Position numbers and translations under genes: made by a program
Origin: a virus
Length of the DNA stretch: 64,000 bases
Virus record (IMG/VR): IMGVR_UViG_3300023063_000002
Coordinates: 12,415-76,414 of that record
Reading direction: 5' to 3' (one strand)
The notes under the pieces: generated by a model
What the model was told of the DNA's origin: nothing
The model's database searches: none
What the model saw: only the letters and a program-made list of their open reading frames with translations
Shown here: one piece after another, positions 36,353 through 37,153 of the stretch
Layout of the letters: each line of letters opens with the position of its first letter
Numbering within the stretch: the first letter of the stretch is position 1

Positions 36353-37153
36353 TTATAATAACTTGAATCTATCAAGAGCTACTTCAAACATATATGCTGC
36401 ATTCCCACCCATCATATCATCGCCAATGAGTTCAGTAGACATATAAAAATTCTTGCTACCATCTATTGTGATACCAATCAGATGCATAATCTTGTCGTAA
36501 CGCTCAAGCTTAACACGAATGGCTTTCTTCTCGGAATCCTCAATGGCTTTGGCTTTAATTTCTTGAAGATTTTTAGCGTATTGCCATTGAGCTACTTTCT
36601 TGCATAGCTCCTTATAAGCTACAACTCGATTCTTATGTGGTGAACGATCATCCCAGGATACTGCTTCACATTTGGAAGGCAGGTGAATTACACGAATTGC
36701 CACATCCGTACGATTACTGCTAAAGCCCCCTGTTGTGTTAGGCGGTTTAAAGGTAGTTGTAAGTATATCTTTTGGATCTAAACCAGGATAAGGGTCAGGT
36801 GCAAGTTCCTCAAAAAGATCTTCCATTGCGTTATCTGTAATCCTTGTTGCACCATTAATATTCTTCAAGCTGTAAGTCTCTACAATTGCAGGGCTTTCTT
36901 CCCAGAGTTTCTTGTAATGATCACGTTCTTTCTGGAGCTTAGCAATTGTTTCTGCTTGGATATCCATTGTGACATTGTTTAGACTACGAGTGTTAAGCAC
37001 ACCCAACTGCATATTGAGTTTGCTATTCTCAGCCCTGATAACTGTTAATGTTTCAGATTGGAGTTTGTAGTTAGCGATGGCTTTTGTAATGATTTCATTA
37101 AGGGTTACAACTTTTGCTTCAAGTTGCTCAATACGTTCTTTCTTTAAGCCCAT
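36353..37153 (-). CDS. Coiled-coil protein carrying a class I release factor (RF-1/peptidyl-tRNA hydrolase) domain with GGF in place of GGQ
   Basis: DPKDILTTTFKPPNTTGGFSSNRTDVAIRVIHLPSKCEAVSWDDRSPHKNRVVAYKEL aligns by eye with RF1 [53 protein letters not shown]. Confidence 0.75.
   Translation of the reverse strand: MGLKKERIEQLEAKVVTLNEIITKAIANYKLQSETLTVIRAENSKLNMQLGVLNTRSLNNVTMDIQAETIAKLQKERDHYKKLWEESPAIVETYSLKNINGATRITDNAMEDLFEELAPDPYPGLDPKDILTTTFKPPNTTGGFSSNRTDVAIRVIHLPSKCEAVSWDDRSPHKNRVVAYKELCKKVAQWQYAKNLQEIKAKAIEDSEKKAIRVKLERYDKIMHLIGITIDGSKNFYMSTELIGDDMMGGNAAYMFEVALDRFKLL

Follow-up and report, generated by a model that had tools for sequence, protein, structure and literature searches.

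The Gly-Gly-Gln (GGQ) motif is among the most invariant features in biology, and plant PrfB3 is a release factor (RF) homolog without its glutamine. The loop that bears the motif enters the peptidyl-transferase center and contacts A76 of the P-site tRNA; substitutions of the glycines abolish release activity, and the side chain of the Gln packs around the attacking water (PMC5799190). Other Gln-less RF homologs have non-hydrolytic roles, either in occupying the A site or as structural proteins, namely Dom34, the baeRF-1 clade and MRPS35 (PMC6514570), and Balon (PMC10901736). A broad survey of RF evolution makes no mention of phages (PMC6514570). The subject of the present analysis is P0001, a protein encoded on the minus strand of a 64,000-nucleotide stretch of viral DNA (positions 12,415 to 76,414 of the IMG/VR record IMGVR_UViG_3300023063_000002; the whole stretch is termed "the window" below). 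P0001 contains an RF-1 domain in which GGQ is replaced by Gly-Gly-Phe (GGF), and it appears to belong to a large group of phage-borne domains that feature an aromatic residue at the Gln position.

An RF-1 domain with GGF in place of GGQ

Residues 126-212 of P0001 matched the Pfam RF-1 family (PF00472) with 37.5 bits compared to a curated cutoff of 35 (E 2.5e-9), and the protein also matched PHROG 20323, "RF-1 domain" (E 3e-9). When PDB chains were searched with phmmer, RF1 and RF2 were found at E values of 1e-7 to 1e-6 (E. coli RF1 at 1e-7); the identity to domain 3 of RF1/RF2 was 30-34% over ca. 80 residues. Comparison of P0001 to a 22-sequence RF1/RF2 alignment in hhalign resulted in a probability of 98.3 and an E value of 1.7e-14, with residues 105-199 aligned; nothing outside of this segment aligned to RF1/RF2. 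In the AlphaFold2 (AF2) model, the predicted local distance difference test (pLDDT) score was above 90 over most of the RF-1 domain and 68 in the catalytic loop. Foldseek matched this model to domain 3 of ribosome-bound RF1/RF2 in the PDB (probability 1.0, root-mean-square deviation of 2.0-2.2 Å over 77-80 residues). A search of the ESM Atlas yielded a single structural match, RF1 at a template-modeling (TM) score of 0.37, and zero feature matches.

The codon-recognition domains were not detected: P0001 had no Pfam match to PCRF (PF03462), even at E<=1. Its scores against the NCBIfam equivalogs prfA and prfB were 34.5-35.4 bits (cutoffs, 370-423). P0001 is thus confirmed to carry a genuine RF-1/GGQ domain without codon-recognition domains, and the agreement goes far beyond chance. 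A preliminary description of this open reading frame (ORF), made from the letters alone, had noted the close match to RF domain 3, the GGF reading and the missing codon-recognition domains, and all three are borne out by the above searches and by the codons themselves. It had also described a long N-terminal coiled coil; of this, the long helices are recovered in the predicted structure (residues 5-50 and 67-94).

In the phmmer alignments to PDB chains, Gly142, Gly143 and Phe144 lie opposite GGQ, with one extra residue ahead of the glycines. The plus strand reads AAA GCC CCC at the corresponding positions, i.e. GGG GGC TTT on the coding strand. Because TTT differs from CAA/CAG at all three codon positions, a base-call error is an implausible source of GGF. 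P0001 retains the scaffold motifs I-R-V-I-H-L-P-S and D-R-S-P-H-K-N-R, and it has the scaffold residues H157, P159, R170, S171, N175, A179 and L183 together with Phe144. Compared to the RF consensus for the 16-residue loop, only the two glycines and T-D are kept. The conserved loop context that ends in D/E-S-A is not found; the sequence there is P-N-T-T-G-G-F-S-S-N-R-T-D-V-A, with Gly142-Gly143-Phe144 where the RF-1 fold has GGQ.

Homologs with an aromatic residue at the Gln position

Thirty-eight distinct homologs without the Gln, derived from metagenomes, IMG/VR viral contigs and cultured phages, were inspected. The residue at the Gln position is Trp in 27, Phe in 10 and Met in one; both glycines are kept in 20 of the 38, and one or both are lost in the other 18. 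When 1.84 billion representative proteins were scanned in full with HMMER, 79 matches were obtained, all via the RF domain and 14 without Gln, and a profile search supplied four further non-Gln homologs. The scan of IMG/VR viral contigs resulted in 14 loci, nine of which encode small non-Gln proteins. With tblastn, an RF-1 domain was found in 122 of 50,697 phage records. Twelve genuine phage examples were read from this set, 11 with an aromatic residue at the Gln position and one with Met. Two records, "Salmonella phage S.Kent 1-2-1" (locus L020, OR851024.1) and "Pseudomonas phage Y1" (L032, OQ572403.1), were dropped; they contain ordinary full-length bacterial RF1/RF2 with GGQ, which are probably host DNA within unverified phage records.

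The cultured phages with members of the family infect Pseudomonas, Acinetobacter, Xanthomonas and Vibrio. In place of GGQ, S-A-W occurs in Pseudomonas phages 73 (ORF037) and LPPA15; S-N-W, T-T-W and R-R-W in the T4-like Acinetobacter phages ZZ1 (p0148), Acj9 (p145) and KARL-1 (gp136), respectively; G-G-F in Pseudomonas phage Skulduggery; and G-N-W, G-Q-W and G-G-W in Vibrio phages. The sole non-aromatic sequence among the 38 is gene 006 of Pseudomonas phage phiPsa347 (L027, positions 401-796), which reads G-A-G-G-M and features a Tyr three residues earlier. Small viral RF-1 proteins on two IMG/VR contigs keep GGQ (L010, 5983-6201; L009, 5914-6288), and thus phages carry both catalytic-type and aromatic-type stand-alone RF-1 domains.

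Most phage members have 76-165 residues, and several consist of the domain only (ca. 76 residues). The extensions of the others are zinc-finger-like segments or subset-specific modules. Because these extensions vary or are absent, the RF-like domain is the common working part of the family. A C-terminal motif, T-D-x-E-L-G-F-A-Y-R-M-M ... G-D-I-S-L-P, is common to the homologs P0002, P0009 and P0016, and an N-terminal domain starting with H-Y-F is common to P0014 and the protein of locus L014.

The domains were compared column by column, using 31 non-Gln and 175 GGQ sequences. In the GGQ set, the Gln and the H-V/I-N-x-T-D/E-S-A that follows it are 93-100% conserved (the H, V/I, N, T, D/E, S and A columns in 163-174 of the 175), and the S-G-A ahead of the loop is likewise conserved. 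The non-Gln set is variable in these columns: the HVNxTDSA motif has been lost, and 24 of the 31 domains have a loop shortened by one residue. The loop of P0001, in which GG is kept, is one residue longer than in most phage members. Both sets retain V-R-I-x-H-x-P-S/T-G, followed by D/E-R-S-Q-H-x-N-K/R-A-x-A-x-x-x-L (the strands and the start of α7); in the non-Gln set, the scaffold H, N and A are each present in 31/31, and P, R-S and L each in 30/31. Given that the scaffold is conserved and the loop is variable, selection has kept the body of the domain and the aromatic tip while releasing those parts of the loop that make a hydrolase. The net charge of the core is +4 to +5 in P0001; the mean for GGQ domains is +4.8.

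A tree calculated without the loop columns had only 61 columns, and few of its branches were well supported. The non-Gln label was clustered in this tree (5 changes, compared to ca. 26 in shuffles), and, with these 61 columns, a single split of the canonical GGQ domains from the rest was not rejected (approximately unbiased (AU) test, p 0.89). The nearest sequence to P0001 was the GGF protein P0002, with a Shimodaira-Hasegawa-like approximate likelihood ratio test (SH-aLRT) value of 93 in the loop-including tree, although few branches were well supported. The tree data fit one old origin of the aromatic-tip group but do not prove it. Judged from these comparisons, the aromatic-tip RF-1 domains appear to form a large, old, phage-borne and apparently undescribed group; literature searches turned up no account of phage RF-1 domains in which Trp or Phe takes the place of the Gln.

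These data also bear on whether P0001 is a functionless product of decay or of an assembly or sequence error, which is extremely improbable. Such an origin would suit a protein that is a singleton at 90% identity clustering and that has orphan flanks. However, the ORF is intact, preceded by a Shine-Dalgarno-like site and tightly coupled to its neighbor; three base changes would have been needed for TTT to arise from CAA/CAG; and the Gln is lost in 37 other divergent sequences (Trp/Phe in 36) in which the scaffold is strongly conserved. The recurrence of the aromatic substitution with a conserved scaffold indicates purifying selection. Sequencing error is effectively ruled out by the family data and the three-base codon difference.

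Proposed function of the aromatic-tip domain

The preliminary description had termed P0001 a "hydrolysis-dead mimic". Shaw and Green reportedly observed in 2007 that most substitutions of the Gln merely reduce hydrolysis, with many variants retaining partial activity. The "dead" part of the term cannot be deduced from the Gln-to-Phe change alone; what stands is that the protein is based on domain 3, that it is no normal release factor and that the rest of the catalytic loop has been lost family-wide. At the level of the family, loss of canonical catalysis is likely, because HVNxTDSA, the pre-loop S-G-A and, in about half of the members, a glycine are lost.

It is unlikely that P0001 is an active peptidyl-tRNA hydrolase, i.e. 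a phage ArfB-like rescue factor in which the aromatic residue confers freedom from methylation by the host PrmC or alters the nucleophile that is admitted. The loss of the pre-loop S-G-A and of the post-Gln segment (conserved in catalytic lineages) argues against this activity, as does the fact that 18 of the 38 members lack one or both glycines, where substitutions abolish release (PMC5799190); neither an ArfB-type basic tail nor codon-recognition domains are present. Nonetheless, P0001 keeps both glycines, the Gln side chain packs rather than playing an acid-base role (PMC5799190), bona fide small GGQ proteins occur in phages (L009 and L010), and relatives are annotated as peptidyl-tRNA hydrolases in databases. 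The GenBank labels of the phage members ("RF-1 domain peptide chain release factor" and "putative peptidyl-tRNA hydrolase") are probably wrong. Dozens of phage records, including those of candidates for phage therapy against Pseudomonas and Acinetobacter, bear release-factor or peptidyl-tRNA hydrolase labels that the sequence does not support.

The most likely function of P0001, which is put forward tentatively, is to occupy the ribosomal A site and peptidyl-transferase center without hydrolysis. The domain has kept the scaffold motifs common to RF1, RF2, ArfB and PrfH, whose sole joint task is to dock at the A site of the large subunit, and it therefore probably continues to bind there. The aromatic tip (Trp or Phe) would then reach the peptidyl-transferase center, where the side chain would stack on rRNA or on the 3' end of a tRNA instead of placing a water molecule. 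The site would be held without peptide release; on some of the ribosomes in an infected cell, host GGQ release and rescue factors or aminoacyl-tRNA would be blocked or would face competition. Targeting or oligomerization would be supplied by the orphan regions at the two ends of P0001.

The Gln-less RF homologs Dom34, the baeRF-1 clade, MRPS35 (PMC6514570) and Balon (PMC10901736) are precedents for such a role. A link to translation was also counted in favor of A-site occupancy: in the T4-like Acinetobacter phages ZZ1 (L022, 928-2728) and Acj9 (L025, 1-628), the aromatic-type gene is located immediately downstream of a tRNA gene array. An RF-1-domain gene is also a core gene of some mycobacterial tRNA arrays (PMC5966550). 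The adjacency in the Acinetobacter phages would also suit a domain repurposed as a binder or enzyme of the 3' end of tRNA or peptidyl-tRNA that protects, modifies or cuts the acceptor end, as proposed for Vms1-type proteins. This is improbable as well as speculative: besides the aromatic residue, there are no newly conserved catalytic residues in the loop, and the window contains zero tRNA genes. In its favor, A76 of the P-site tRNA is a normal contact of the GGQ loop (PMC5799190), an aromatic residue at the tip might stack on a base, and there is a claim of nuclease activity for VLRF-1 (see the discussion in PMC6514570).

Several points weigh against occupancy of the A site by P0001. Ribosome binding by the aromatic-tip members is a step that we infer from the scaffold. 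The GGQ domain of ArfB needs a basic C-terminal tail for ribosome binding (PMC8012679), whereas several phage members, domain-only proteins of ca. 76 residues, have no tail and the C-terminus of P0001 is acidic; without such a tail, ribosome binding by the isolated domain may be too weak, or its target may be a different one. The family core also has a lower mean net charge (+2.7) than the GGQ domains (+4.8), and modeling of the loop reached only moderate confidence (pLDDT 68). If the peptidyl-transferase center were blocked in general, phage translation would halt too, and thus some selectivity must be assumed. Finally, no partner gene was conserved across unrelated phages in the 18 loci compared, nor was any common to the window; the neighbors that these loci do have in common reflect only the kinship of the phage-73-like phages.

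The domain might instead act away from the ribosome as a decoy, a GGQ mimic that traps PrmC or a host defense or toxin component aimed at release or rescue factors. The location of the gene among early/middle orphan genes, where counter-defense genes are common, is compatible with this role, as is the location of a GGF homolog near genes for ArdC, a DUF4942 methyltransferase and NinX, which has the look of an anti-defense island; PrmC binds domain 3 via the GGQ loop, and PDB entry 2b3t is among the fold matches. Yet P0001 and three neighbors had zero matches to the PADLOC defense models, and we know of no defense system or toxin that targets the GGQ domain. A loop that is recognized would be expected to be conserved, but it is the least conserved part of the domain save for the aromatic residue. 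Because a block of PrmC would leave those release factors that were methylated before infection unchanged in a lytic cycle, the PrmC decoy is ranked low. Decoys of either kind are unlikely. Of the roles suggested in the preliminary description (occupying the peptidyl-transferase center, decoying PrmC or a defense sensor or toxin, and modulating termination), occupancy of the A site and peptidyl-transferase center is ranked first.

A wider claim, possible but doubtful, is that phages commonly encode a protein plug for the peptidyl-transferase center, with the aromatic side chain placed in the A-site pocket that is used by the side chains of aminoacyl-tRNAs. Selected ribosomes would be frozen or shielded by such a plug, e.g. 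by blocking host release and rescue factors or by guarding the ribosomes from defense toxins. If so, viral translation-control factors would gain a new class, one that offers a natural template for inhibitors of the peptidyl-transferase center. A large viral lineage in which the domain is kept but the Gln is systematically swapped for Trp or Phe implies a selected, unstudied activity at, or derived from, the catalytic center of the ribosome. Should the members bind ribosomes, they would constitute a new phage route to control host translation or to counter translation-targeting defenses, and a natural experiment on the role of the Gln side chain. Cultured, tractable members exist.

Gene setting and relation to known systems

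The features of the P0001 gene and of the two genes upstream are collected in Table 1.

Table 1. Coordinates in the window of P0001, its parts and the adjacent upstream genes
Feature	Position	Strand	Basis
P0001, whole ORF: RF-1-domain protein with GGF replacing GGQ; 266 residues plus stop codon	36353..37153	-	ORF list
P0001 N-terminal region, residues 1-94; two predicted long helices (5-50, 67-94)	36872..37153	-	AF2 model
P0001 linker, residues 105-124; aligned in register to the final strand of RF domain 2 plus the connector to domain 3	36782..36841	-	hhalign, phmmer
P0001 RF-1/GGQ-domain fold, residues 125-212; three strands and long helix α7	36518..36781	-	Pfam, phmmer, AF2, Foldseek, hhalign
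P0001 remodeled catalytic loop, residues 136-151, K-P-P-N-T-T-G-G-F-S-S-N-R-T-D-V	36701..36748	-	column comparison
Codons GGG GGC TTT = Gly142 Gly143 Phe144; Phe at the RF Gln position	36722..36730	-	sequence, phmmer alignment
P0001 C-terminal region, residues 213-266; final part of the long helix, followed by a small strand/helix unit	36356..36517	-	low-confidence AF2 model
Upstream orphan ORF, 118 residues	37155..37511	-	ORF list, sequence
Ribbon-helix-helix protein gene, 153 residues, PF01402	37511-37972	-	Pfam

In the N-terminal region, the pLDDT of the AF2 model is 82-92 for residues 1-30 and lower further on. The linker (residues 105-124) matches the "HTSFxxVxVxPE" segment of RFs (the hhalign alignment starts at query residue 105, which corresponds to RF column 197; the phmmer alignments to RF1 in the PDB begin at residue 113), and it may be what is left of a once complete release factor. 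On the C-terminal side, the RF-1 domain runs into a very long helix in the AF2 model (172-225), and residues 226-266 have a net charge of -3, unlike the basic tail of ArfB-type proteins. BLASTP comparisons with two RFs gave weak colinear similarity of the C-terminal region to RF domain 4, which was not confirmed by hhalign; it is a possibility that P0001 is a shrunken full-length release factor. The N- and C-terminal flanks had no relatives among the 1.84 billion representative proteins or by local phmmer, and phmmer found no flanking domains common to P0001 and other family members. At 90% identity clustering, P0001 remained a singleton; a word-indexed search of 5.8 billion proteins returned only P0001 itself, and near-identical DNA was absent from the phage collection. 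Prediction of a two-copy homodimer scored 0.14, compared to a mark of 0.32, a score that speaks neither in favor of self-association nor against it.

The stop codon of the 118-residue ORF (37155-37157) lies one base before the P0001 ATG (37151-37153), and a Shine-Dalgarno-like GAGGGG run is located 7-12 bases upstream of this ATG (37161-37166); P0001 and this ORF are therefore probably translationally coupled. The start of the 118-residue ORF, in turn, overlaps the end of the ribbon-helix-helix gene. With their abutting or overlapping stops and starts, the three genes (the two upstream ones at 37155-37972, minus strand) look like one translationally coupled unit, an arrangement that is absent from the other domain-carrying phages compared. 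A promoter/terminator scan found neither on the coding strand near the P0001 gene.

The window is a segment of a siphovirus-type phage genome in which every gene is encoded on the minus strand. Among the products are a 2876-residue tape measure protein, the major capsid protein, portal and large terminase, as well as a T7-like RNA polymerase, DNA polymerase, primase-helicase, ribonucleotide reductase and DNA ligase. Among cultured or described viruses, the closest to the window are EBPR siphovirus 1, the Ruegeria phages DSS3_VP1/PM1, Roseobacter phage CRP-7 and Pelagibacter phage Kolga, and P0001 had no match in any of them. The P0001 gene is located in a ca. 17-kb stretch of mostly orphan genes between the replication and packaging genes; in Pfam and PHROG searches, the neighboring ORFs were orphans except for the one ribbon-helix-helix domain. 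A position among early/middle orphan genes beside replication genes is the recurrent setting of the family. The GGF homolog P0144 (L018, 4196-13352; contig JACCEA011686952.1 of a metagenome-assembled genome) is found between genes for a DUF4942/N6-methyltransferase and a VWA protein, with NinX and ArdC/MPTase genes nearby, in what looks like a phage or plasmid anti-defense island.

Three other features of the window were recorded. In a 1489-residue protein (18877-23346, minus strand), residues 142-247 form a Phage_Mu_F head-morphogenesis domain and residues 1330-1436 match the single-subunit RNA polymerase family PF00940 above cutoff; PHROG 414 is also matched, at 993-1106. For a siphovirus, this protein is a candidate RNA polymerase of the kind packaged into virions, and it brings to mind the virion RNA polymerase of N4. 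The T7-like RNA polymerase gene (505 residues; region 60801-63951, minus strand) matches only the C-terminal half of the family profile, and ahead of it lie a NUMOD4/HNH homing-endonuclease ORF (62373-62894) and a 275-residue ORF without a Pfam match; the polymerase may have been split by insertion of the homing endonuclease. Two adjacent paralogous ORFs of 141 and 132 residues (31238-32113, minus strand), both matching PHROG 17693 (unknown function), represent a tandem duplication.

Among known systems, domain 3 of RF1/RF2 has the same fold and scaffold motifs as P0001 (V-R-I-T-H-x-P-T/S-G and R-S-Q-H-x-N-K/R-x-x-A), but P0001 is without the Gln, its loop is remodeled on both sides, and it has no PCRF domain or codon-recognition superdomain (domains 2/4, with the PxT or SPF motif). 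ArfB (YaeJ), ICT1 and C12orf65 resemble P0001 in having an RF-1 domain without codon-recognition domains and in using other segments for targeting; in these proteins, GGQ is kept and a basic C-terminal tail that extends into the mRNA channel is required (PMC8012679), whereas P0001 reads GGF, its C-terminus is acidic and its N-terminus is long and helical. PrfH (RF-H, the partner of RtcB2) is a shortened, horizontally spread RF homolog to which P0001 gave a weak profile match (TIGR03072, 30.4 bits compared to a cutoff of 166.65). It keeps GGQ and a remnant of domains 2/4 and works with an adjacent RtcB; no RtcB match was found among the adjacent ORFs scanned here. The Gln has also been lost, in favor of a non-hydrolytic A-site, hibernation or structural role, from MRPS35 (bacterial-type fold) and from Dom34/Pelota, the baeRF-1 clade and Balon (archaeo-eukaryotic fold) (PMC6514570, PMC10901736). 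These proteins and PrfB3 are of other lineages; none is phage-borne, no conserved aromatic residue at the Gln position has been reported for them, and the fold of Dom34 and Balon differs. The group of P0001 itself comprises the phage proteins of PHROG 20323/3122 (73 ORF037, ZZ1, Acj9, KARL-1 and Vibrio), which have an aromatic residue for Gln and are encoded in early/middle regions. Most of these have 76-165 residues, a Trp, and one or both glycines lost; P0001 features Phe, both glycines and unique extensions. The RF-1 domain and its Gln-less derivatives in other lineages were known; what is new, as far as can be told, is a widespread lineage of phage domains that has an aromatic residue conserved in place of the Gln.

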